A stretch of 64,000 nt of DNA from an uncultured Chloroflexia bacterium (lineage in GTDB: Bacteria > Chloroflexota > Limnocylindria > Limnocylindrales > CSP1-4): positions 365,053 to 429,052 of the forward strand of contig CAVSKR010000002.1 of assembly GCA_963728635.1 (NCBI GenBank). The letters run 5' to 3'. A program made the position numbers and the translations under genes. How positions within the stretch are numbered: the first letter of the stretch is position 1; every line of letters begins with the position of its first letter. The notes beneath the pieces were generated by a model. It saw only the letters and a list, made by a program, of their open reading frames with translations. It ran no database searches and was not told where the DNA came from. Below are positions 7,466 through 55,032 of the stretch, in pieces.

Positions 7466-8020
7466 TTGGTCACGGAGCTGCAACTCGGGTCCCGGATCCG
7501 GACACTGCGGCAGGCTCGCGGGCTGACCCTTCGCGACGTTTCCGAGCGCGCCGGTGTCACGGAAAGCTTCCTCTCGCAGGTCGAGCGTGACGTGACCAGC
7601 CCGTCGATCGCGACCGTCCAGCGGATCGCCCGCGCTCTCGACCTGTCCATCGCGCAGCTCTTCGCGCACGATGCCGACACCGGGCGCGTCGTCCGCCGCG
7701 AAGCGCGCCGTCGGGTGGAGTACCCGGGCCTCAAGGCCGTCGACGAATTCCTGACGTCGAACCTGGCGGGCCGGCTCCAGGTGATCATGTCGACGATCGA
7801 AGCCGGTGGCGGCACCGGCGCAGACCCCTATACGCATGAGTCGGACGAGGAGACCGTCATCGTCCTGACCGGTGTCCTCGACCTGTGGGTCGGCGACGAG
7901 CATTACATCCTGCGCGAAGGCGACGCGATCACGTTCCCGTCGCGCGTCCCGCATTGGAATGCCAACACCGGCAGCGACCCGGCGACGGTCCTGTTCTGCA
8001 TGACGCCGCCGAGCTTCTGA
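7466..8020 (+). CDS. XRE-family HTH plus cupin transcriptional regulator (PuuR-like)
   Basis: LGSRIRTLRQARGLTLRDVSERAGVTESFLSQVER HTH; cupin HESDEE...GDAITFPSRVPH; TTG 7466 after GAGGA. Confidence 0.9.
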   Translation: MVTELQLGSRIRTLRQARGLTLRDVSERAGVTESFLSQVERDVTSPSIATVQRIARALDLSIAQLFAHDADTGRVVRREARRRVEYPGLKAVDEFLTSNLAGRLQVIMSTIEAGGGTGADPYTHESDEETVIVLTGVLDLWVGDEHYILREGDAITFPSRVPHWNANTGSDPATVLFCMTPPSF

Positions 8021-8101
8021 CGCCGGTCCGGTGCCAGGCGGCACCGGGCTGGGACCATCGGGTCGGCACATGGGGTGGCGCGCGGACGGTAGGCTTATGC
8101 C

Positions 8102-8989
8102 ATGGCTCCACGTCTGGCGATGCGCCCGCGCGCCCACCGCTTGCTGCTCGCGGGTACCCTCGGCGTCGCGGTCCTCGGGGCGATGCCGTGGTCCGTGGCG
8201 GCCGACGAGTCGCCCCCGCCGGAGTCCTCGGCGGAGCCGTCGGCGACGACCGAACCGACCCCCAGCCCGACTGCTCCCCCCGAACCGGCTCCTGAACCCG
8301 CCGCGGCGCCCGAGCCGACCACGGCTCCGGCGTCCGACCCGACGCACACGCCGTCCCCGGACGCGACTCCGACGCCGACTCCGACCGCGACGCCGACTCC
8401 GTCATCGCCCACCTATGCGCTGGCCAGCATCAACCTGTATCGGTCGACGGCGATGGTCCGTCAGTACACGAGCTACTACTGCGTGCCGGCAACGGTCCAA
8501 TCCATGGCCAACCTGGTCCTGCGGACGAGCAACCGGACCTACTCGCGGCAGGGCTACATCTACAGGCTCACCCGCCAGCACAACCGCTATCGATATGCCA
8601 CCAGAGGCAATGACCCCCAGGGCTGGGCGTGGTCCCTGCGCTACTTCACGGGCGGCCGGAACTACCAGGCGCGCGCGTACTCCGACAAGACCGCCGCGAT
8701 CAACTCGATCGCCGCCTCCATCGCCAGGACGAGGCACCCCGTCGGCGTCACCGTCCACGCGGGCACGCACGCCTGGGTGGTGCTCGGGTACAAGCAGACC
8801 TGGGACCGGAACGAGCCGTCGAAGAAAACCCTTCTCGGGCTTTACGTGAGTGGTCCGCTGGGCACGACGCGGGATCGCTGGCCATACAAATACCTCACCG
8901 TCGCCCAGTTCCGCGAGGTCTTCACGCGCTATCACGAGTGGCAGCGAGCCGTGCCCTGGGAAGGCAAGTGGGTGGTCGTCGCCCAGTGA
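8102..8989 (+). CDS. Secreted Pro-rich protein with papain-like C39-type peptidase domain
   Basis: Signal peptide ending AVAA, Pro/Thr linker, QYTSYYCVPATVQ and HAWVVLGY motifs. Confidence 0.65.
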   Translation: MAPRLAMRPRAHRLLLAGTLGVAVLGAMPWSVAADESPPPESSAEPSATTEPTPSPTAPPEPAPEPAAAPEPTTAPASDPTHTPSPDATPTPTPTATPTPSSPTYALASINLYRSTAMVRQYTSYYCVPATVQSMANLVLRTSNRTYSRQGYIYRLTRQHNRYRYATRGNDPQGWAWSLRYFTGGRNYQARAYSDKTAAINSIAASIARTRHPVGVTVHAGTHAWVVLGYKQTWDRNEPSKKTLLGLYVSGPLGTTRDRWPYKYLTVAQFREVFTRYHEWQRAVPWEGKWVVVAQ

Positions 8990-44718: not shown

Positions 44719-44804
44719 ATGGATCGTGACAATGGTGCCACCCGTGCGCGCCTCGACGGAGGCCGCGGGCGGAATCCGGTGAATCCGGCAGTAGAATGCC
44801 CCGC

Positions 44805-46067
44805 ATGCCCGGCCCCCTCGTCGTCCAGAAGTACGGCGGCTCATCGGTCGCCGGGGCGGACCGGATCAAGCGGGTCGCCCGGCGCATCGCGCGCGAGCGT
44901 GCCGCCGGTCACGATCTCGTGATCGTCGTGTCCGCCATGGGCGACACCACAGACGAGCTGCTCGGCCTCGCCGCCGCGATCACCGATGACCCAGATCCGC
45001 GCGAGCTCGACGTGCTGCTGGCGACGGGCGAGCATCAAAGCGCCACCCTCGTCTCGATGGCGCTCCACGGCATCGGCATCCCGGCGATCAGCCTGACCGG
45101 GCCGCAGGCCGGCATCACGACCGACGGCACGTACGGACGTGCGCGCATCGCCGGCATCGAGCCACGCCGCGTGCGCGCGGAGCTCGAGAGCGGCAAGGTC
45201 GTGATCGTGGCCGGCTTCCAGGGCCAGAGCGCGACGCAGGCCGACGACCAGGAGATGACGACGCTCGGGCGCGGAGGCAGCGATACCACGGCTGTCGCGC
45301 TCGCTGCCGCCCTGCGCGCCGATCGCTGTCAGATCTTCACCGACGTCCGTGGCATCTTCACGGCCGACCCGCGCCTGGTCCCGCATGCCCGTCAGCTGCC
45401 GCTCATCGGCTACGAGGAGATGCTCGAGCTCGCCCACCAGGGCGCTCAGGTCATGCAGGTCCGGGCCGTCGAGCTGGGCTGGATCAACGACGTCGTCATC
45501 GAGGTCCTGAGCTCGTTCGAGGACGCGCCGGGCACGCTCATCAAGGAGGACCCGCTCGTGGAACAGCGCAACAAGGTCCGCGGGCTCGCCCACGACCGGA
45601 ACGTCGCCAAGGTGACGGTCGTCGCGGTCCCCGACCGGCCGGGCATCGCGCGGGCGATCTTCGATCCCCTCGCCGCGGCCGGGGTCAACATCGACATGAT
45701 CGTCCAGAACGTCGGCCATGGCGGCGAGACCGACCTGTCGTTCACGGTCCCCGAGGTCGAGCTCGGAAAGGCGAAGAAGACGCTCGAGCCGGTCGTGCGC
45801 GAGCTCGGCGCTCGCGAGCTGACGACGGATGCGTCGGTGGCCAAGGTGAGCATCGTCGGGGCCGGCCTGCACAACGCCCCGGGCTACGCGGCCAGGATGT
45901 TCGGCACGCTGGCGGACGCGAACGTCAACATCGAGATGATCTCGACGTCCGAGGTGCGGATCACCTGCATGATTGCCGAGGAGGAGCTCGAGACCGCGCT
46001 GCGCGCGTTGCACGAGGCGTTCGAGCTCGAGCGCCCGGAGCCGGTGGAGGTCGCGGCGGCCGGCTAG
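44805..46067 (+). CDS. ask: Aspartate kinase (alpha/beta type)
   Basis: VQKYGGSSV, VSAMG, LGRGGSDTTA, ADPR; two ACT domains. Confidence 0.97.
   Translation: MPGPLVVQKYGGSSVAGADRIKRVARRIARERAAGHDLVIVVSAMGDTTDELLGLAAAITDDPDPRELDVLLATGEHQSATLVSMALHGIGIPAISLTGPQAGITTDGTYGRARIAGIEPRRVRAELESGKVVIVAGFQGQSATQADDQEMTTLGRGGSDTTAVALAAALRADRCQIFTDVRGIFTADPRLVPHARQLPLIGYEEMLELAHQGAQVMQVRAVELGWINDVVIEVLSSFEDAPGTLIKEDPLVEQRNKVRGLAHDRNVAKVTVVAVPDRPGIARAIFDPLAAAGVNIDMIVQNVGHGGETDLSFTVPEVELGKAKKTLEPVVRELGARELTTDASVAKVSIVGAGLHNAPGYAARMFGTLADANVNIEMISTSEVRITCMIAEEELETALRALHEAFELERPEPVEVAAAG
45558..46067 (+). CDS. Aspartate kinase beta subunit from nested in-frame start
   Basis: AAGGAGGA at 45543-45550, GTG at 45558 in frame, immediately before the ACT domains. 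Confidence 0.7.
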   Translation: MEQRNKVRGLAHDRNVAKVTVVAVPDRPGIARAIFDPLAAAGVNIDMIVQNVGHGGETDLSFTVPEVELGKAKKTLEPVVRELGARELTTDASVAKVSIVGAGLHNAPGYAARMFGTLADANVNIEMISTSEVRITCMIAEEELETALRALHEAFELERPEPVEVAAAG

Positions 46068-46080
46068 GTCGCCCTCCCTC

Positions 46081-46905
46081 ATGCCTCAGTTCATCAGCCA
46101 CCTGGAACGCTTCGCCACCGTCGGTTCGACGAACGATGTCGTCCGCGATTTTCTGGCCGAGGGCGTCCCGGAAGTCTGCCTGGCTACCGCCGATGAGCAG
46201 ACCGCCGGACGTGGCCGTGAGGGCCGGACGTGGGTGTCGCCACGGGGCACGGCGCTGCTGGCATCGCTCGGCTTCCGTCCGACTTGGCTCGCACCGGATC
46301 GCGTCTGGCAGGTGGCTGCGACAGTGTCGCTCGCGATGGCCGATGCCTGCGAGACGGTCGGGGGGCTCCCCGCCGGCGTCGTCCGCCTGAAGTGGCCCAA
46401 CGACCTCGTGGTCTCCGCTGGCAATGGTGTCCTGAAGCTCGCTGGTGTCCTCGGTGAGAGCGACGGGCTCGGGACCGACGACCCGCGCGTCGTCGTCGGC
46501 ATCGGCGTGAACACCGACTGGGCGCCGACCGACTTCCCGCCAGAGCTCGCGGATACGATGACGTCGCTTCGGGATCTCACCGATGGCTCGATCGACCACG
46601 AGGCGTTGCTCGCGTTGTTCCTGGCCAATCTCGAGCCCTCCGTCGAGGAGCTCAGAAAGGGCCGGTTCGACGGTCCGGGTTGGGGGAACCGCCAGGTGAC
46701 GAACGGCCGCGACATCGAACTGATCGAACCTGATGGGCAGTCGACGATCGTTCCCGCGATGGGCGTCGACCCCGCGACCGGCGCGCTCGTCGTCGAGGAC
46801 GCCACGCGCGGGCCGCGAAGCGTGTTGGTCGGCGAGATCCGGCATGTCCGACTGTGGGCCCAGCACGACCCGGACCGCTTTCTAGACTTTCTGGAATCGG
46901 TGTAA
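46081..46905 (+). CDS. birA: Biotin--acetyl-CoA carboxylase ligase (no HTH)
   Basis: STND, QTAGRGREGRTW, KWPND, KLAGVL, GIGVN. Confidence 0.93.
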   Translation: MPQFISHLERFATVGSTNDVVRDFLAEGVPEVCLATADEQTAGRGREGRTWVSPRGTALLASLGFRPTWLAPDRVWQVAATVSLAMADACETVGGLPAGVVRLKWPNDLVVSAGNGVLKLAGVLGESDGLGTDDPRVVVGIGVNTDWAPTDFPPELADTMTSLRDLTDGSIDHEALLALFLANLEPSVEELRKGRFDGPGWGNRQVTNGRDIELIEPDGQSTIVPAMGVDPATGALVVEDATRGPRSVLVGEIRHVRLWAQHDPDRFLDFLESV

Positions 46906-46909
46906 CGCG

Positions 46910-47548
46910 ATGGCCCGTCCGGCATTGAGGAAGACGACGCGGTCCCAGGGGGCCGTTCGCCCACGCCTCGCCCGCCTCGACCTCGACCGGTCGCTCGTGG
47001 ATGCGGCACGGGCCGACCCCGCGCGGTTCGACGCGCTGTACCGGAAGTACGTTGCCCAGGTGTACAACTACGCGGTCTACGAGCTCGGCGACCATCACGA
47101 GGCGGAGGACGCCACGGAACGGACGTTCCTGTCCGCGCTGGCCGGCCTGCCCCGATTCGAGGAGCGCGCCGAGCCCGACGACGGAGAGGGCGCCTCGACC
47201 TTCCGCATCTGGCTCCTCCGGATCGCCCGAAACGTGGTCAACGAGCGTCGCCGGCGCTGGCGGCGCCGTCCCGAGGCGCCGCTCGAGCTTGCGCTCACCG
47301 CACCCGACCCGACCGATGTCGAGCACGCCGTCGTCGAGCGCGAATCGGCGCTGTCCGCGTGGCGGGCGGTGGACCGCCTGAGCGGCGATCGCCGGCGGGC
47401 CGTGATCCTGCGCTTCGTCCACGAGATGTCGACGGCGGAGATCGCCGCAGTCCTCGGCCGGTCTGAGGGCGCGGTCCGGGTCCTGATCCATCGCGGCCTG
47501 CGCGGCGTCGCACGCGACCTGCGCGACCGTCGCGAGGGGAGGGCGTGA
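46910..47548 (+). CDS. ECF-type sigma70 factor
   Basis: AEDATERTF, FRIWLLRIARN, LRFVHEMSTAEIAAVLG.SEGAVRVLIHRG. Confidence 0.93.
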   Translation: MARPALRKTTRSQGAVRPRLARLDLDRSLVDAARADPARFDALYRKYVAQVYNYAVYELGDHHEAEDATERTFLSALAGLPRFEERAEPDDGEGASTFRIWLLRIARNVVNERRRRWRRRPEAPLELALTAPDPTDVEHAVVERESALSAWRAVDRLSGDRRRAVILRFVHEMSTAEIAAVLGRSEGAVRVLIHRGLRGVARDLRDRREGRA

Positions 47549-47991
47549 CCGTCGGTTCGACCGCGCGTGACGGGGAGATCGAGGCGCTCGTCGTCGACCG
47601 ATACCTCGAGTCGTTGCTCGCGCGCGCGCCACGCGATCCGGCGGACGTGCCGGAGGACGTGCGGGCCACCGCCGACCGACTGGCCGCCGCCCTGCCGCGC
47701 TACCACCCGTCCTTCCGCTTCGAGGAAGACCTCGCCGCGCGCCTCGCGCTCGCGGCCGCGTCCGCGACGGAGGGGATCGGCGACATCATCGACTTCCCCG
47801 CCGGTCGATCGCGCGACCGCGGCACGACCGACGATGGGCGCGGCCAGGTCCGCCCGGTGGTGATCGGCGGTGTGGTGACGTCGGCCGCGATCTCGCTCGC
47901 CGCCGCGTGGATGGCCTGGCGCCGAGGGCGGCCGCCCGCCGACCCGATGACGCGCGCGGTTCGCGCCGTCGCGCGGACGAGGATCGTCTGA
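47545..47991 (+). CDS. Small membrane protein, probable anti-sigma factor
   Basis: GTGA overlap with sigma gene; PSFRFEEDLAARL helix; single C-terminal hydrophobic segment. Confidence 0.6.
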   Translation: MTVGSTARDGEIEALVVDRYLESLLARAPRDPADVPEDVRATADRLAAALPRYHPSFRFEEDLAARLALAAASATEGIGDIIDFPAGRSRDRGTTDDGRGQVRPVVIGGVVTSAAISLAAAWMAWRRGRPPADPMTRAVRAVARTRIV

Positions 47992-49970
47992 TGCCGCTCA
48001 AGCTGCCGTCCTTCCGCGCCCGGCGGGACGTCTACCCGCCCGACCTCTGGACGAAGTGCCCGACCTGCTCGACGATGCTGTTCAACAAGCAGCTCGAGAA
48101 GAACCTCCGGGTCTGCACCACGTGCGGCCACCACTTCCGCCTGTCGGCCGAAGCCCGGTTGGACCACCTGCTCGACCCCGGCAGCTGGTCGGAGCGCGAT
48201 CCGGGACTGCAATCGGTCGACGCGCTCGGGTTCGTGGACCAGAAGCCGTACCCGGACCGGCTCGCCGCCGCCCAGCTCGCGACGGGCATGCGCGACGCGG
48301 CCGTGTGGGGCACCGGGTCGATCAGCGGTCACGAGATCGCGATCTGCGTGATGGATTTCGGGTTCATGGGCGGCTCGATGGGCGCGGTGGTCGGCGAGAA
48401 GGTCACGCGGGCGGCCGAGCACGCGCTCGCAGCGCGGGTGCCGCTCATCGTCGTGAGCGCGTCGGGTGGCGCCCGCATGCAGGAGGGCACGCTGGCGCTG
48501 ATGCAGCTCGCCAAGACGCTGGCCGCGCTCGAGCGGCTGCGCGCGAGCGGCGTGCCGTTCTTCTCCGTCCTGTCAGACCCGACGACCGGTGGCGTCTTCG
48601 CATCGTTCGCAGCCGTCGGCGACGTCAACATCGCCGAGCCGGACGCGCTCATCGGCTTCGCAGGGGCGCGCGTGACCGCCGGCACCATCGCCGCCGAGCT
48701 CCCGCCCGGCTTCCAACGGGCCGAGTTCCTCTACAGCCACGGCTTCGTCGACCGGGTGGTGGCGCGTCCGGAGCTGCACGACGAGCTGGCCAGCCTGCTC
48801 CGCTTGCTCCCGGCGCGAGGTTCGCTCGAGGAGCCAGAGCCCGAGGAGGACGTGCCGGCATTCCGGCCGTTCTCGTTCCTCACGACGATCGCGGATCGGG
48901 TGGGGGAGCTCGCGAACGGCGAAGGCCCGACCGACGGCGACGAAGAAGCCGAGGTCCCCACGCCGCCAGTCACGGTCCCGGCCGTGGCCCCGGACGGCGC
49001 CGTGGCGATCGCGCCGCTCGACGACAAGGCACGCGACGACGTGTGGGCGCGCGTCCAACTGGCGCGCAGCCTGCGCCGGCCGCGCACGCTCGAGTTCCTC
49101 GACGCCATGGCCGACGAGTTCGTCGAGCTGCACGGCGATCGGCTCTTCGGCGACGACGCCGCGATCGTGGCCGGTCTGGCCCGCATCGGCGGCCGGCGTG
49201 TGGTGGTCATCGGCCAGCAGAAGGGCGCGGACACCGACGAGAACATCCGGCGCAACTTCGGCATGCCCCATCCGGAGGGCTATCGCAAGGCCATGCGGGT
49301 CATGGAGCTCGCGGAGCGCGCGGCTCTCCCGGTCGTGACCTTCGTCGACGTCCCGGGTGCCCATCCCGGTCCGGAGTCGGAGGAGCGCGGTATCGCCGAG
49401 GCGATCGCCCGCTCGATCGGGTTGATGAGCCGTCTCCGGACGCCGATCGTGACGGTGATCACCGGTGAGGGCGGCTCGGGCGGGGCCCTGGCGATCGCCG
49501 TCGCCGATGTCGTGATCGCCCTCGAGAACGCGGTCTACTCGGTCATCAGCCCGGAGGGCTGCGCCTCGATCCTGTGGCGGACGGCTGATGAGGCGGCGAC
49601 GGCCGCCGCGGCGATGCGGATGTCGGCGGCCGACCAGCACGCGCTCGGCGTGGTCGACATCGTGGTGCCGGAGCCGGGCGAGGGTGCGCACGCGGAGCCA
49701 GAGGCGACGGCCGATCGTCTCCGCTCGGTCATCCTCGATCGGCTCGACGCGCTCGACGCGCTATCGATGGAGACGCTCCTCGAGCAGCGCTACCGACGCT
49801 ACCGTGCCCTGGGCGCCTACACTGAGGTCGCCAGACCCGAGGTGCCCGGGCGCGTGGACCGGAGTCTCGCCGATCGCCTGCGCGATCTGCTGGATCCGGC
49901 TCGGAGGGGACTCGTCGGGGTCGAAGCCTGGTCCCGAGACGACGATCCACCGGCTCGCGAGGAGGTATAG
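47991..49970 (+). CDS. accDA: Fused acetyl-CoA carboxylase carboxyltransferase beta+alpha
   Basis: Zn finger CPTC..CTTC, SGGARMQEG, DPTTGG; acidic linker; HGDR, NFGMPHPEGYRKA, GEGGSGGAL, SPEGCASIL. Confidence 0.95.
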   Translation: MPLKLPSFRARRDVYPPDLWTKCPTCSTMLFNKQLEKNLRVCTTCGHHFRLSAEARLDHLLDPGSWSERDPGLQSVDALGFVDQKPYPDRLAAAQLATGMRDAAVWGTGSISGHEIAICVMDFGFMGGSMGAVVGEKVTRAAEHALAARVPLIVVSASGGARMQEGTLALMQLAKTLAALERLRASGVPFFSVLSDPTTGGVFASFAAVGDVNIAEPDALIGFAGARVTAGTIAAELPPGFQRAEFLYSHGFVDRVVARPELHDELASLLRLLPARGSLEEPEPEEDVPAFRPFSFLTTIADRVGELANGEGPTDGDEEAEVPTPPVTVPAVAPDGAVAIAPLDDKARDDVWARVQLARSLRRPRTLEFLDAMADEFVELHGDRLFGDDAAIVAGLARIGGRRVVVIGQQKGADTDENIRRNFGMPHPEGYRKAMRVMELAERAALPVVTFVDVPGAHPGPESEERGIAEAIARSIGLMSRLRTPIVTVITGEGGSGGALAIAVADVVIALENAVYSVISPEGCASILWRTADEAATAAAAMRMSAADQHALGVVDIVVPEPGEGAHAEPEATADRLRSVILDRLDALDALSMETLLEQRYRRYRALGAYTEVARPEVPGRVDRSLADRLRDLLDPARRGLVGVEAWSRDDDPPAREEV

Positions 49971-49973
49971 CGC

Positions 49974-50561
49974 GTGCCAGATCAGGTCCCGGCCGACGCC
50001 CGACGCTCGCGTGACGACGGCGAGCGTTCTGCCGACCACGCAGCCATCGACCGCCTCACAGGCGAGCTGCTGCCCGCACTGATCTCGAAGCTCGGGGCGA
50101 CCGGCCTCGGCGAGCTCGAGGTCCGGGAGGGCGAGTGGCGCGTCAGGCTCCGGCGTCCGGCTAGTCCGCCCGCGGGTGGCCGCGACCGGCGCGCCGGCGA
50201 CCGTGGCAGCGCCGAGCGGTCGACGGAGCGCGTGCCCGAGCGGCCGCCGCGTGCCCAGCACCTGCATCCCCACCCCGAGCCCCCGGCCACCGCCCGCTCC
50301 GATTCGCGGAGTGTCGCCACGTCACCGGCGGTCGGCATCTACCAGCCGCGCAAGGACCTGACGATCGGCTCGCGCGTGCGCGCGGGCGACCGGATCGGCG
50401 CAGTCGACATGCTCGGCGTGCCCCAGGAGGTGGTCGCCCCGATCGACGGCGTCGTGGGGACGAGCCTGGTGGAGCCGGGCGAGGCCGTCGAGTACGGCCA
50501 GGAGCTCGTCGTCGTCGAATTCGGCGTCCCGATGTCGACCAACGGCACCGGCAACGCCTGA
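49974..50561 (+). CDS. BCCP-like protein lacking the biotinylated lysine (BADC-like)
   Basis: AccB-like N-terminus LGELEVREGEWRVRLRR; biotinyl domain SPAVG...VDMLGVPQEV...GEAVEYGQEL with DMLG instead of EAMK. Confidence 0.8.
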   Translation: MPDQVPADARRSRDDGERSADHAAIDRLTGELLPALISKLGATGLGELEVREGEWRVRLRRPASPPAGGRDRRAGDRGSAERSTERVPERPPRAQHLHPHPEPPATARSDSRSVATSPAVGIYQPRKDLTIGSRVRAGDRIGAVDMLGVPQEVVAPIDGVVGTSLVEPGEAVEYGQELVVVEFGVPMSTNGTGNA

Positions 50562-51931
50562 TGTTCAAGAAGGTCCTCATCGCCAACCGCGGGGAGATCG
50601 CCCTCCGGGTGCTGCGCGCCTGCCGCACCCTCGGCGCGGAGTCGGTGGTCGCCTACAGCGAGGCAGACCGCGAATCGCTCCCGGTCGGGCTCGCCGACGA
50701 GGCGATCTGCATCGGCCCGCCCGAGGCCCAGCGGTCGTACCTGTCCGCGCCCGCGGTGATCTCGGCCGCGCTGGTCACCGGCTGCGACGCGATCCATCCG
50801 GGATACGGCTTCCTGTCCGAGGACGAGGGCTTCGCCGAGGTGGTGGCGGCCCACGGCATGACATTCATCGGTCCGCCCGCCAACGTCCTGGAGCGCTTCG
50901 CCAGCAAGGCCGGGACGCGCCAGCTCCTGGGCGCCCACGGGCTGCCGACGATCCCGGGTTCGGACGGGATGCTGCGCGACGACATCCACGCCCTCGCGGA
51001 AGCCGAGCGCATCGGCTATCCGGTCCTGGTCAAGCCATCGGCCGGTGGTGGCGGCAAGGGCATGCGCATGGTGCGCACGCCGCGCGAGCTCGAATCCGTC
51101 CTGAGGGTCTGCCGCAGCGAGGCGAAGGCCGCGTTCGGCGACAATTCGCTGTACCTCGAGAAATGGCTCGATGAGAACCGCCACGTCGAGGTCCAGGTCG
51201 CGGTCGACCGGTACGGTCACGGCGTCCACCTCGGGGAGCGCGACTGCTCGGTCCAGCGGCGTCACCAGAAGATCCTCGAAGAGGCTCCGACACCAGCCCT
51301 GTCCGATGCCGTCCGCGAGGATCTCGCGGAGCGCGCGATCCGGGCGGTCGTCGCGGCCGGCTACGAGAACGTCGGGACGCTCGAGTTCCTCGTCGATCGG
51401 GCCGGCAACTTCTACTTCATCGAGATCAACTGCAGGATCCAGGTCGAGCATCCCGTCACCGAGAGCCTGACCGGCGTCGACCTCGTCGCGATGCAGATGC
51501 GCATCGCCGCCGGCGAGCCACTGGGCATCACCCAGGCCGACATCACGTTTTCTGGCCACGCGATCGAATTCCGGATCAACGCCGAGGACCCGGCGCACGA
51601 TTTCCGCCCGGGGGCCGGCGTCGTCGAGCGCTACCACGCGCCGGGCGGGCCGGGCGTGCGCATGGACTCGCACCTGTTCACCGGCTACGAGGTCCCCCCG
51701 TTCTATGACTCCCTGCTCGGCAAGCTCATCGTGTGGGGGCCTGACCGCGAGACCGCCATCGCCCGCGGCCGGGTGGCGCTCGAGGAGCTGGTCATCGACG
51801 GCATCACGACCAATGTCGACATCCACCAGGCGCTTCTCGCCTCCGAGACATTCCTCGAGGGCCGGATGACGACGAACCTGCTGGATCGGGTGGGCAGCGC
51901 GGCCTTCCTCGCGGCGGCCGCCCGGGCATGA
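50561..51931 (+). CDS. accC: Biotin carboxylase
   Basis: IANRGEIA, HPGYGFLSE, GGGGKGM, QRRHQK, EINCRIQVEH, RINAED, YDSLLGK. Confidence 0.97.
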   Translation: MFKKVLIANRGEIALRVLRACRTLGAESVVAYSEADRESLPVGLADEAICIGPPEAQRSYLSAPAVISAALVTGCDAIHPGYGFLSEDEGFAEVVAAHGMTFIGPPANVLERFASKAGTRQLLGAHGLPTIPGSDGMLRDDIHALAEAERIGYPVLVKPSAGGGGKGMRMVRTPRELESVLRVCRSEAKAAFGDNSLYLEKWLDENRHVEVQVAVDRYGHGVHLGERDCSVQRRHQKILEEAPTPALSDAVREDLAERAIRAVVAAGYENVGTLEFLVDRAGNFYFIEINCRIQVEHPVTESLTGVDLVAMQMRIAAGEPLGITQADITFSGHAIEFRINAEDPAHDFRPGAGVVERYHAPGGPGVRMDSHLFTGYEVPPFYDSLLGKLIVWGPDRETAIARGRVALEELVIDGITTNVDIHQALLASETFLEGRMTTNLLDRVGSAAFLAAAARA

Positions 51932-52014
51932 CCGTTGTGCAGACCTGCACACGCCGACCCGTTGCCGCCGGCCGCCACCGCCCAGACTGACCACGACCGT
52001 CCTTGGAGCCGCCC

Positions 52015-52470
52015 GTGACCGACACCGTCCACACGACCGCCGAGATCGAACGCCTGATCCCGCATCGCCACCCCTTCCTCCTGGTCGACCGCATCGTCGA
52101 GTACGACCCGGACGCGAAGCGCATCGTCGGGCTCAAGGGCGTCACGGCGACCGAGTGGTTCTTCGCGGGGCACTTCCCGGGCCTGCCGGTCATGCCCGGT
52201 GTCCTCCAGGTGGAGGCGCTCGCCCAGACCATGGCGGTCTACGTCGCGAAGCAGCCCGGGTTCGGCGACCGGATCGGCCTGTTCGCCGGCATCGACGACG
52301 TGCGCTTCAAGCGGATCGTCGCACCGGGCGACACGCTCCGGCTCGAGGTCACGATGGAGAAGCTCGGCTCGCGGTTCGGCAAGGGCCGCGGCGTCGCGAG
52401 CGTCGCCGGTGAGGTCGCGTGCGAGGGCGTCCTGAGCTTCATCATCCCGCCCGAGGGCGCCCTCCGATGA
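52015..52470 (+). CDS. fabZ: 3-hydroxyacyl-ACP dehydratase
   Basis: IPHRHPFLLVD, GHFPG.PVMPGVL..EA.AQ. Confidence 0.97.
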   Translation: MTDTVHTTAEIERLIPHRHPFLLVDRIVEYDPDAKRIVGLKGVTATEWFFAGHFPGLPVMPGVLQVEALAQTMAVYVAKQPGFGDRIGLFAGIDDVRFKRIVAPGDTLRLEVTMEKLGSRFGKGRGVASVAGEVACEGVLSFIIPPEGALR

Positions 52471-53213
52471 GCCGGATCGCAGCCCTCTCCGACGTCCACG
52501 GCAACGCGGCCGCCCTCGAAGCCGTCCTCGCGGACATCGCACGCGAGAAGCCGGACGTGCTCATGGTCGCGGGCGATCTCGTGCTCAACGGTCCGGAACC
52601 CGCCCTGGTCATCGACGTCCTGCGCAGCCTGGCCGGCGATGGCGCCCTGATCATCGGCGGCAACACCGACATCGCGGTCGCGGATTTCGACTACGCGGCC
52701 GCCTTCCCGTGGATGATCGACGGCGTCCCGGACGCGATCGTCGATGCGGCGGAATGGGCCCACGAGGCGATCGGGGAGGAGCGGCTCGACTGGCTTCGGC
52801 GGCTTCCGGCCGAGCGCCGCTGGCGCACGGACGACGACACGCTCGTCCTGGCCTGCCACGGCTCGCCCGGGTCGCAGACCGCCGGCTTCGACCAGAATCT
52901 CGACCCGTCGGTCACGATCGAGCGGGTCGCGCGGACCGACGCCCGGGTCATCGTCTGTGGCCATACCCACCTGCCCGAGGTTCGCGACTTGGGCTGGAAG
53001 GTCATCGTCAACGATGGGTCCGCGGGCTACGTGTTCGACGGCGACCCGACCGCGTCGTGGGCGCTCATCGACATCGCCGACGACGAGGTCCACGCCGAGA
53101 TCCGGCGCACGACGTTCGACACGCTGGGGGTCGCCAACGCCATCTCGGCCCGCGGTCTTGCGGGCGATGTCTACCGGGCCGCCACTGTCCGAACCGGGAA
53201 ACTCGTGCGATGA
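52467..53213 (+). CDS. Calcineurin-like metallophosphoesterase (YfcE/MJ0936-like)
   Basis: DVHGN, GDLV, GNTD, CHGSP, GHTH, NDGSAG. Confidence 0.9.
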   Translation: MSRIAALSDVHGNAAALEAVLADIAREKPDVLMVAGDLVLNGPEPALVIDVLRSLAGDGALIIGGNTDIAVADFDYAAAFPWMIDGVPDAIVDAAEWAHEAIGEERLDWLRRLPAERRWRTDDDTLVLACHGSPGSQTAGFDQNLDPSVTIERVARTDARVIVCGHTHLPEVRDLGWKVIVNDGSAGYVFDGDPTASWALIDIADDEVHAEIRRTTFDTLGVANAISARGLAGDVYRAATVRTGKLVR

Positions 53214-54460
53214 GCCGGCGGGTCGTGGTGACTGGGATGGGCCTGGTGACCGCGCTCGGGAACGACCTCGAAACGACCTGGGCGGGCATGGTCGCGGGGC
53301 GCTCCGGGATCACGACGATCGATGCGTTCGATCCGTCGCGGCTGACGGTCCGCATCGCGGGCCAGGTCCGCGACTTCGACGCGAGCCACGTCCTCGACCG
53401 CAAGGACCAGCGCCGCACGGACCGCTACATCCAGTTCGGGCTGGTCGCGGCCCGCGAGGCGATGGACCAGGCCGGCCTGCCCGATCGGCTGGAGGGCGAG
53501 CAGGCCGAGCGCACCGGCGCGATCCTGGGCACGGGCCTCGGCGGCGTGGGCACGCTCAACGAAGGCATCAGCACCAACGTGACCCGCGGCCCGGACCGGA
53601 TCAGCCCATTCCTGATCCCGATGGGTATCCCCAACGTCGGGGCCGGGCAGATCGCGATCAACTTCGGCATGACCGGGCCGAACTTCGCGACGGTCTCGGC
53701 GTGCGCCACAGGCGGTCACGCCGTCGGCGAGTCGTTCGAGACCATCCGGCGTGACGACGCCGACATGATGATCGCCGGCGGCACGGAGGCCGGCATCCAC
53801 GAGTTCCTCATCGGCGGGTTTGCCGCGATGCGCGCCCTGTCGACCCGCAACGACGACCCGGCCGGGGCGTCTCGCCCGTTCGACACCGGTCGCGACGGCT
53901 TCATCTGTGGCGAGGGGGCCGGGGTCCTGGTCCTCGAGGAGCTCGAGCACGCCCGGGCGCGCGGGGCGACTCCACTCGCGGAGATCGTCGGCTACGGCGC
54001 GACCGCGGACGCGTCGCACATCACGCTGCCCGCGCCCGGTGGCATCGGTGCCGTCCGCGCCGCGCGACGGGCGCTCGAGAAGGCGGGGCTGTCGCCCGGG
54101 GACGTCGACCACGTGAACGCCCACGCGACGTCGACACCGGAAGGGGACAAGTCGGAGCTCCAGGCGATCAAGACGATCCTCGGCGAGCACGCCGCGGAAA
54201 CGCCGATCACGGCCAACAAGTCGATGATCGGCCACACGCTCGGGGCGGCCGGTGCGATCGAGTCGATCGTGTCGGTCATGACGATCCGCGAGGGCTGCAT
54301 CCCACCGACCATCAATCTGACCGACCCGGATCCTGAGGCCGCGGGGCTCACGATCGTCGCGAACCAGGCCGCTCAGCGGGACGTCGGCGTAGTGCTCTCG
54401 AACTCGTTCGGGTTCGGGGGCCAGAACACGGCCCTGATCTTCCGGCGATGGGACGCATGA
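53210..54460 (+). CDS. fabF: Beta-ketoacyl-ACP synthase II
   Basis: RRVVVTGMG, SACATG, HATST, KSMIGHTLGAAG, NSFGFGG. Confidence 0.97.
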   Translation: MSRRVVVTGMGLVTALGNDLETTWAGMVAGRSGITTIDAFDPSRLTVRIAGQVRDFDASHVLDRKDQRRTDRYIQFGLVAAREAMDQAGLPDRLEGEQAERTGAILGTGLGGVGTLNEGISTNVTRGPDRISPFLIPMGIPNVGAGQIAINFGMTGPNFATVSACATGGHAVGESFETIRRDDADMMIAGGTEAGIHEFLIGGFAAMRALSTRNDDPAGASRPFDTGRDGFICGEGAGVLVLEELEHARARGATPLAEIVGYGATADASHITLPAPGGIGAVRAARRALEKAGLSPGDVDHVNAHATSTPEGDKSELQAIKTILGEHAAETPITANKSMIGHTLGAAGAIESIVSVMTIREGCIPPTINLTDPDPEAAGLTIVANQAAQRDVGVVLSNSFGFGGQNTALIFRRWDA

Positions 54461-55032
54461 CCGACGACCTCGAGCCGATGGCCGTTGGTCCCGGTGCAGA
54501 GCCGCTCGGAGACGGTGTCGTCGGCGCGCCGGACGCGAAGGCCGCGACGCCCCGCGATGACGGCGATCTCGAGCTGCTCGGTCTCATCGATCGTCTCGCG
54601 GCCCTGCTCGACCGCTCGGACCTGACCGAGCTCGAGGTGGAGTCCGGCAGCACCGGCCTCGTCCTGCGCAAGCCATCGGCCCTCGCCCCGATCAGCGTGG
54701 CCAGTGTGGCGGCGTCGTCGCCCGCGGCGTCCGCGGTGGCTGCACCTGCGACCGGCGAGGGAGCGGCCGGGGATCGCGAGGGAGCCCCCACCAAGCCGTC
54801 GATCAAGGCGCCCCTCACCGGCATCTTCTACGCATCGCCGGCACCGGGGACGGCACCGTACGTGGCCGTCGGCGGCGAGGTCGCGGTCGGCCAGATCATC
54901 GGCCTCATCGAGGCCATGAAGCTGTTCAACGAGATCAAATCCGACCTGGCGGGGCGCGTCGTTCGCGTCGTGGCCGAGAGCGGCACGCTGGTCAAGGCGA
55001 AGCAGCCGCTGATCGAGGTCGAGCCACTGTGA
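54457..55032 (+). CDS. accB: Biotin carboxyl carrier protein
   Basis: APLTGIFYASPAPG thumb, IEAMKLFNEI (Lys codon 54919-54921). Confidence 0.95.
   Translation: MTDDLEPMAVGPGAEPLGDGVVGAPDAKAATPRDDGDLELLGLIDRLAALLDRSDLTELEVESGSTGLVLRKPSALAPISVASVAASSPAASAVAAPATGEGAAGDREGAPTKPSIKAPLTGIFYASPAPGTAPYVAVGGEVAVGQIIGLIEAMKLFNEIKSDLAGRVVRVVAESGTLVKAKQPLIEVEPL

Follow-up and report, generated by a model that had tools for sequence, protein, structure and literature searches.

We analysed a stretch of 64,000 nucleotides (the window; G+C content, 70.5%) of contig CAVSKR010000002.1 from an uncultured Chloroflexia bacterium. It carries the genes of a heteromeric acetyl-CoA carboxylase (ACC), the enzyme of the committed step of fatty-acid synthesis and a target of antibiotics and herbicides, whose subunit assembly is only lately being resolved. 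Among these genes lies the open reading frame (ORF) 49974..50561, which we call X throughout and which stands in the usual place of accB, the gene for the biotin carboxyl carrier protein (BCCP). A preliminary description of this DNA had taken X for a BCCP paralog lacking the biotin-accepting lysine and had proposed it as a bacterial counterpart of the plant BADC proteins. The features of X are as follows.

49974..50561 (stop within the coordinates), + strand: X, Lys-less BCCP paralog of 195 amino acids (ORF call; TIGR00531, 40 bits; intact in 81 of 81 orthologs)
50034..50159, + strand: N-terminal helix and beta-hairpin motif, residues 21-62, AccB-like (LLPALIxKLGxxGLGELEVRxGxWRVRLRRP)
50160..50306, + strand: linker, residues 63-111, long and charged (Arg/Asp/Glu/Pro), predicted to be disordered (pLDDT <50)
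50307..50522, + strand: biotinyl-fold (barrel-sandwich) domain with shortened thumb, residues 112-183 (pLDDT 82-88; Foldseek)
50415..50417, + strand: Gly148 codon GGC, aligned to the biotin lysine and invariant in 81 of 81 orthologs

X starts with GTG, 8 nt behind an AGGAGG at 49960-49965. The preceding gene, an accD-accA fusion, ends with a TAG at 49968-49970 and leaves a gap of 3 nt, and the stop codon of X (TGA, 50559-50561) shares a base with the ATG of accC (50561-50563) in the sequence TGATG. The accB-like position of X and its coupling to accC, both pointed out in the preliminary description, are borne out by these coordinates as well as by the conserved loci described below.

The curated BCCP model TIGR00531 matched residues 35-182 of X with 40.2 bits against a cutoff of 115.2, and Pfam Biotin_lipoyl gave 16.7 bits against a threshold of 22.1. 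The best relative of solved structure found with a profile of X orthologs was full-length E. coli BCCP (PDB 4hr7_B, E=8e-11), and the alignment took in the C-terminal domain as well as the N-terminal motif. Residues 37-62 of X corresponded in it to residues 29-54 of E. coli BCCP, the motif matching residues 29-60 overall. The family profile 'GDrlGavdmlGvaqev' was aligned on GDTLCIVEAMKMMNQI, and its 'GavdmlGvaqev' part on CIVEAMKMMNQI. Because this alignment puts Gly148 on E. coli Lys122, and a second alignment agrees, we conclude that the glycine encoded by GGC 50415-50417 occupies the place of the biotinyl lysine at the tip of the hairpin, as had been claimed. The thumb of X has 2 + 4 = 6 residues fewer than that of E. 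coli AccB, and the same holds against the window's own AccB, in agreement with the earlier estimate of about six.

AlphaFold2 modelled a helix at residues 7-43 and strands at 47-51 and 54-58 (pLDDT 53-67), a disordered linker (residues 63-117), and a C-terminal domain of residues 120-183 with pLDDT 82-88. Foldseek aligned this domain with the biotinyl domains of BCCPs, 1bdo and 4hr7 among them (TM score, 0.71-0.80; root mean square deviation, 2.0-2.9 Å). Its best matches were thumb-less archaeal BCCPs, and lipoyl domains of the E2/GcvH type appeared as weaker matches only. A lipoyl-lysine is absent from the hairpin tip of X, which is Gly, without a conserved Lys. The profile match to 4hr7_B, the AlphaFold2 model and the Foldseek matches thus confirm the AccB-like N-terminal segment, linker and biotinyl-fold domain that had been read from the sequence.

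The linker of X has a median of 9 basic and 7 acidic residues in 58, and that of AccB 2 and 3 in 37. In the close clade, nine positions of this region (50160-50306) are near-invariant, namely R70, R72, R73, D76, R77, R82, R93, H100, and R108. Such conservation would be odd for a mere flexible tether, and it does not extend to distant family members. Likewise, the C-terminal tail 'VPMSTNGTG' (50523-50558) is kept within the close clade and lost in distant members. No nucleic-acid-binding domain was found in X in Pfam/TIGR profile scans.

X is embedded in a cluster of co-directional genes, listed here without X itself.

44796..46067, + strand: aspartate kinase
~46081..46905 (start approximate), + strand: biotin protein ligase, BirA type (Pfam BPL_LplA_LipB, 61 bits)
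46910..47548, + strand: extracytoplasmic function (ECF)-type sigma factor (Sigma70_r2 and r4_2)
47545..47991, + strand: putative anti-sigma ORF, at a conserved position directly upstream of accDA
47991..49970, + strand: accD-accA fusion (accDA; carboxyltransferase beta and alpha) with Zn ribbon and acidic inter-domain linker, in one ORF (TIGR00515 and TIGR00513 above cutoffs)
50561..51931, + strand: accC, biotin carboxylase (TIGR00514, 628 bits against a cutoff of 626.5)
52003..52470, + strand: fabZ (Pfam FabA)
52467..53213, + strand: metallophosphoesterase (MPE; Pfam Metallophos_2)
53210..54460, + strand: fabF (Pfam ketoacyl-synt)
54448..55032, + strand: canonical accB with full thumb (IEAMKLFNEI; Pfam Biotin_lipoyl, 51.5 bits; TIGR00531, 109.8 bits)
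from 55029, + strand: fabH, with fabG further downstream, to 56986

The canonical accB, which the preliminary description had put at about 4 kb, lies 3.9 kb downstream of X and overlaps the end of fabF and the start of fabH. The TGATG seen at the X/accC junction is also found between the anti-sigma ORF and accDA (47989-47993), and there are further overlaps of fabZ with the phosphoesterase gene (ATGA, 52467-52470), of fabF with accB (13 nt, 54448-54460), and of accB with fabH (GTGA, 55029-55032). These repeated start/stop overlaps fit one long, translationally coupled operon. A promoter and terminator scan of the region from 46 to 58 kb, ill suited to this organism, gave no terminators between the cluster genes and a single, antisense promoter-like match.

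Several features of the neighbouring genes deserve mention. The sigma/anti-sigma pair upstream of accDA may control the acc-fab cluster, and a calcineurin-like metallophosphoesterase (52467-53213) is kept between fabZ and fabF. No helix-turn-helix or other DNA-binding domain was detected in the BirA-type ligase of the cluster. The inter-domain linker of AccDA, ~70 residues long, has a median net charge of -8 in 40 orthologs, and the linker of X a net charge of +2; this charge complementarity is too weak to use.

The window is not free of assembly errors. Compared with two orthologous assemblies (L001 and L002), it carries ~20 uncompensated single-base insertions between 55556 and 57800, which frameshift fabH, fabG, and the next gene and look like a local patch of assembly error. 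No uncompensated indels were found in the acc operon relative to the same two assemblies, where all gaps were paired and of the alignment type. The lesions of X are therefore not errors of the insertion kind.

In a protein database, 3936 proteins matched X at E<=1e-3, canonical BCCPs possibly among these, and the best 120 of the 3936 matches were 69-100% identical to X and came from metagenome assemblies of Limnocylindria/Limnocylindrales (Chloroflexota). An index of contigs gave no exact match to the sequence of X. A profile search of representatives of 50%-identity clusters gave 358 clusters with E<=1e-10, of which 124 reached E<=1e-30, and two scans of species-representative genomes brought up ~125 distinct X-bearing contigs. 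Nearly all of these contigs were labelled Limnocylindria or Chloroflexota, a few short ones being binned elsewhere. As far as these searches reach, the X family is limited to one bacterial class, Limnocylindria, whose members are soil and freshwater bacteria.

Glycine was present at the lysine position in all 81 orthologs, which stem from independent assemblies. Of 150 cluster representatives (50% identity), 146 had it too, and the four exceptions were truncated or frameshifted fragments. The hairpin motif of the family is [VI][DEN][MVLC]LG[VI]. The profile search for Lys-less BCCPs next to accC that the preliminary description had suggested led to a family with a nearly uniform glycine, and its claim of a clean ORF without read error agrees with the 81 orthologs and with the indel map of the acc operon. 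A lysine elsewhere in X as an alternative attachment site was also considered and rejected, since none of the columns of 114 near-full-length representatives holds a conserved Lys. The nearest to one is K39, but this residue is Arg in 70% of the 114. In the same set, P34, L36, L45, E47, E49, W55, R58, and R60 were at least 96% conserved, and in the biotinyl-like domain 'SPAVG', 'D.LG', and 'VEYGQ' are invariant. From the glycine and the missing lysine column, X is predicted to be incapable of biotin carriage.

The gene order is equally conserved. The arrangement accDA-X-accC, followed by accB ~4.0 kb downstream (range, 3.7-4.5 kb), was found at 105 loci, and 26 more contigs were too short. Only one family member had room for accB and lacked it, and this was a frameshifted assembly. 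The estimated offset between the stop of X and the start of accC was most commonly -1 (49 of 128 loci), and most other offsets were 5 nt or less. The full order AspK-BirA-sigma-antisigma-AccDA-X-AccC-FabZ-MPE-FabF-AccB was present at 56 Limnocylindria loci.

To describe selection on X, we calculated the ratio of nonsynonymous to synonymous substitution rates (dN/dS) by segment for X against 11 close orthologs and for AccB against 8-10. The values for X were 0.08 in the N-terminal motif, 0.36 in the linker, and 0.16 in the C-terminal domain; for AccB they were 0.12, 0.44, and 0.06, respectively. Hence, the most constrained part of X is the assembly motif and not the carrier-like domain, and this order is reversed in AccB. 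For whole genes, dN/dS was 0.14-0.29 for X and 0.05-0.15 for AccC. Because of the low values in the folded parts (0.08-0.16) and overall, we conclude that X is under purifying selection. The preliminary description had named orthologs that retain Met-Lys, or a dN/dS near 1, as findings that would speak against it; what we found is an invariant glycine and a dN/dS far below 1.

A neighbor-joining (NJ) tree of 137 columns, a distance method, grouped the Lys-bearing AccBs with 88% bootstrap support and placed X in a clade of its own with 69%. The resolution of this tree is insufficient to choose between an origin of X from Limnocylindria AccB and an older one. The subtree of X is congruent with that of AccB; weak as the tree is, it indicates that X is probably an ancient paralog that has descended vertically from the time of the class ancestor.

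What could a carrier that cannot carry do in ACC? In plants, BADC1-3 are BCCP homologs (25-30% identity) without the AMKL motif and have been seen either as inhibitors or as the 'glue' that assembles biotin carboxylase (BC) with BCCP (PMC11926652; PMC12706156). In E. coli AccB, the first ~30 residues form a helix/strand/strand unit that was modelled as an oligomeric beta-barrel tethering the BCCPs in the middle of the ACC tube, and the N-terminus of AccD contacts both BC and BCCP (PMC11160672). Our preferred reading, which we hold tentatively and with a little less than even confidence, is that X is a non-catalytic subunit of the heteromeric ACC of Limnocylindria that assembles or stabilises the BC-BCCP subcomplex. 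X would be synthesised in fixed proportion to AccC, and its AccB-like helix/hairpin motif at the N-terminus would bring it into the complex, where it would probably form mixed oligomers with AccB, bind AccC, or both. Its biotin-less domain could then occupy, without turning over, the surfaces at which AccC or the N-terminus of AccD binds BCCP. AccB would do all the carboxyl carrying, and X would assemble and stabilise BC-BCCP, as in the 'glue' model of BADC.

Other readings of X have to be weighed against this one. That X is a decaying accB pseudogene, or its lost lysine a sequencing error, might be suspected because real single-base insertion errors occur in the window at 55.5-57.8 kb and because X falls below the cutoffs of the curated BCCP and Biotin_lipoyl models. 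However, the glycine recurs in the independent assemblies and in the cluster representatives, the ORFs are intact, the folded parts are constrained, and the acc operon is without uncompensated indels; on orthologs, dN/dS, and indel map together we reject this explanation, whose probability we consider negligible. Only slightly more credible, and still highly improbable, is that X remains a carrier through another residue or cofactor. Its biotinyl fold is intact, but the tip is a Gly and the 114 representatives offer no Lys column, K39 being mostly Arg. A third way in which the fold could serve is as a decoy or sensor for the biotin ligase: as a pseudo-substrate, X would bind BirA or BirA-biotinyl-AMP and thereby modulate the biotinylation of AccB. 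A BirA-type ligase gene does lie in the same conserved cluster, and X keeps, in its modelled fold, the hairpin geometry that the ligase recognises. The Met-Lys core is nevertheless fully replaced (A-M-K by M/V-L-G) and the thumb shortened, the ligase has no detected DNA-binding domain that would make a decoy into a regulatory signal, and a gene placed between accDA and accC points to a partner within ACC, which makes the decoy very unlikely in our view.

Two further readings build on the N-terminal motif. X might be an expression autoregulator, specialised in the repressor function of the AccB N-terminus and binding DNA or mRNA of the operon through the motif and the Arg-rich linker. Residues 1-68 of E. 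coli AccB repress accBC (PMC11160672), no other part of X is as constrained as the motif (dN/dS, 0.08), and the linker is long and charged, with Arg positions conserved in the close clade. Yet this would leave the selection on a complete folded biotinyl-like domain unexplained (dN/dS of 0.16 and the invariant 'SPAVG', 'D.LG', and 'VEYGQ'), the linker sequence is unconserved in distant members, and the profile scans gave no nucleic-acid-binding domain, so that we regard autoregulation as improbable. More weight is due to the proposal, unlikely as we judge it to be, that X is a competitive attenuator, which would take the sites of AccB on AccC or in the AccB N-terminal oligomer and leave fewer productive carriers. 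It would thereby set a ceiling on malonyl-CoA synthesis, and this could be tuned by pH, charge, or partners. An AccB-like N-terminus and a docking-competent domain without Lys are what such a competitor needs, and the first accounts of plant BADCs made them negative regulators displacing BCCP (cited in PMC11926652; PMC12706156). On the other side, a gene fixed in the operon and overlapping accC suggests constitutive, proportional synthesis and not conditional deployment, and the scan, weak as it is, gave no separate promoter or terminator signal. We prefer the assembly role over attenuation because of this hard-wired proportional expression and because of the stronger constraint on the assembly motif.

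Several points nevertheless weigh against the assembly reading. Sequence data alone do not separate the assembly from the inhibitor model, and in structural terms an inhibitory competitor is just as compatible with what was observed. Unlike the Ala/Pro-rich linker of AccB, that of X is charged, which hints at a role beyond a simple mimic of AccB, and the N-terminal part of the X model, through which X would be assembled, is of moderate confidence (pLDDT 53-67). A mirror-tree analysis compared X with the three ACC proteins AccC, AccB, and AccDA and with background genes; on the mere 19 loci left after filtering, X correlated no better with AccDA (partial r = 0.46) than with the unrelated AspK. 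Furthermore, co-transcription of the cluster is deduced from gene spacing alone, and the hosts of X are known solely as metagenome-assembled genomes.

BCCP homologs without the acceptor lysine were also seen outside the X family. In Armatimonadota, a family of 12 clusters with the motif 'ALGIAN[DE]' has Gly in the Lys column and a shortened thumb (7803-8213 in L140, 7821-8234 in L148, and 8001-8402 in L158). The gene order there is the Lys-less BCCP, a small membrane protein, accC, nusB, and folD, and no canonical accB was found within 8 kb. In Ktedonobacteria, all 45 genomes fetched encode a protein with '[IV][QES][SA]LNV[IL]NE[VI]' (e.g., 'QSLNVINEV'), that is, with Asn in the Lys column and the thumb retained (7815-8330 in L149, which is 4001-4513 in L159, and L160-L204). 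Cultured carriers of this Asn type are species of Dictyobacter, Ktedonosporobacter (K. rubrisoli), and Thermogemmatispora; in Dictyobacter aurantiacus the gene is flanked by efp and xseA, with no accC within 4-8 kb. Finally, single Chloroflexota contigs show Arg at the Lys column (VEVLRM and VEAMRM; L141, ~7900-8273, and L207, 4001-4474) or Gly (IETLGI; L214, 4001-4228).

The Armatimonadota family shares with X the BCCP build, the Gly, the shortened thumb, and the place upstream of accC, whereas the Ktedonobacteria proteins differ by the Asn, the retained thumb, and an efp/xseA context without a nearby accC. In all of them Leu replaces the Met before the lost Lys. Both are families separate from X, and the NJ tree does not join either with X. 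Given the Armatimonadota, the Ktedonobacteria, and the single Chloroflexota cases, the loss of the acceptor lysine in conserved BCCPs is recurrent in these phyla. We therefore suggest, as a tentative generalisation that we credit with somewhat less than an even chance, that Lys-less BCCP paralogs are recurrent, several-times-evolved non-catalytic partners of bacterial heteromeric ACC (in Limnocylindria, Armatimonadota, Ktedonobacteria, and scattered Chloroflexota), which have converged with BADC to a Leu-Gly hairpin. If this is true, control or assembly of ACC by a dead carrier would be a general solution and not a plant invention, and it could be studied in simple prokaryotes, some of them cultured. 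X is tractable in this respect, as heterologous reconstitution is straightforward and Lys-less relatives exist in cultured Ktedonobacteria. There is also a practical side for annotation: metabolic reconstruction would be led astray by the labels that pipelines give to X and its orthologs, 'biotin carboxyl carrier protein' or 'biotin/lipoyl-containing protein'.

Compared with known systems, X is built like E. coli AccB and the TIGR00531 family, with an N-terminal helix/hairpin, a linker, a C-terminal biotinyl domain, and a gene directly upstream of accC. It differs from them in having no acceptor lysine, a short thumb, a charged linker, and a score of 40 bits, far below the family cutoff of 115. 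The published ACC of Chloroflexus contains a BC-BCCP fusion with the lysine intact. A looser likeness exists to the actinobacterial epsilon subunits of the AccE/PccE type, which are also small and non-catalytic, are encoded with carboxylase genes, and hold a complex together. These subunits are not known to be related to X in sequence or fold, or to derive from BCCP. They are cited as a precedent for the 'glue' idea in PMC11926652 (compare PMC7835884). Full-text literature searches gave no description of a bacterial BADC-like protein or Lys-less BCCP, and a bacterial, operon-encoded, non-biotinylatable BCCP paralog is apparently undescribed.

The closest parallel is to the plant BADCs, which are not known to have been reported outside plants and algae. 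For the comparison, a BADC fragment served as database query and matched proteins of Populus, Salix, Hibiscus, and Colocasia with 73-82% identity. We take these to be probable BADC orthologs, although UniRef names them only 'Lipoyl-binding domain-containing protein'. Their hairpin reads IEQLGGE(L/I)PIE (P0291-P0294), with Gly in the Lys column and Leu before it, so that the glycine that the preliminary description had given for BADCs holds for these BADC-type sequences. X and BADC are both Lys-less homologs of BCCP found beside the true BCCPs of a heteromeric ACC, both have a hydrophobic-Leu-Gly hairpin (VDMLGV in X, IEQLGGE in the plant proteins), and the roles suggested for BADC, as inhibitor or as assembly glue, would fit X. 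However, the domain of X is only 20-23% identical to the plant BADC-type sequences, compared to 26-33% to bacterial BCCPs. Where the thumb of X is shortened, BADC carries a longer, basic, thumb-like insert (RRSRTIKGKRAPPSCKEK), and the BADC tail LPSFPGIKKLQ is absent from X, which has its own tail. Moreover, BADCs are separately regulated nuclear genes, while X belongs to an operon and its stop codon runs into the start of accC.

A specific homology of X to BADC is thus rejected on the identities, the absent insert and tail, and the confinement of X to one bacterial class. Of the proposed bacterial BADC counterpart, the Lys-less BCCP beside a true BCCP stands and the specific relatedness does not; 'counterpart' has therefore to be read as analog by convergence and not as ortholog. 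Because X is closer to bacterial BCCPs than to the plant sequences, its likeness to BADC is likely convergent, and we see X as a functional-design analog of independent origin, an example of convergent evolution in which Met-Lys became Leu-Gly at the hairpin in separate lineages. In plants, it is disputed whether BADC inhibits ACC or glues it together, and a bacterial analog could settle what effect a dead carrier has. Since X is encoded in the operon, is made alongside the catalytic subunits, and has a single true AccB beside it, it would be a cleaner system for this purpose than BADC itself.

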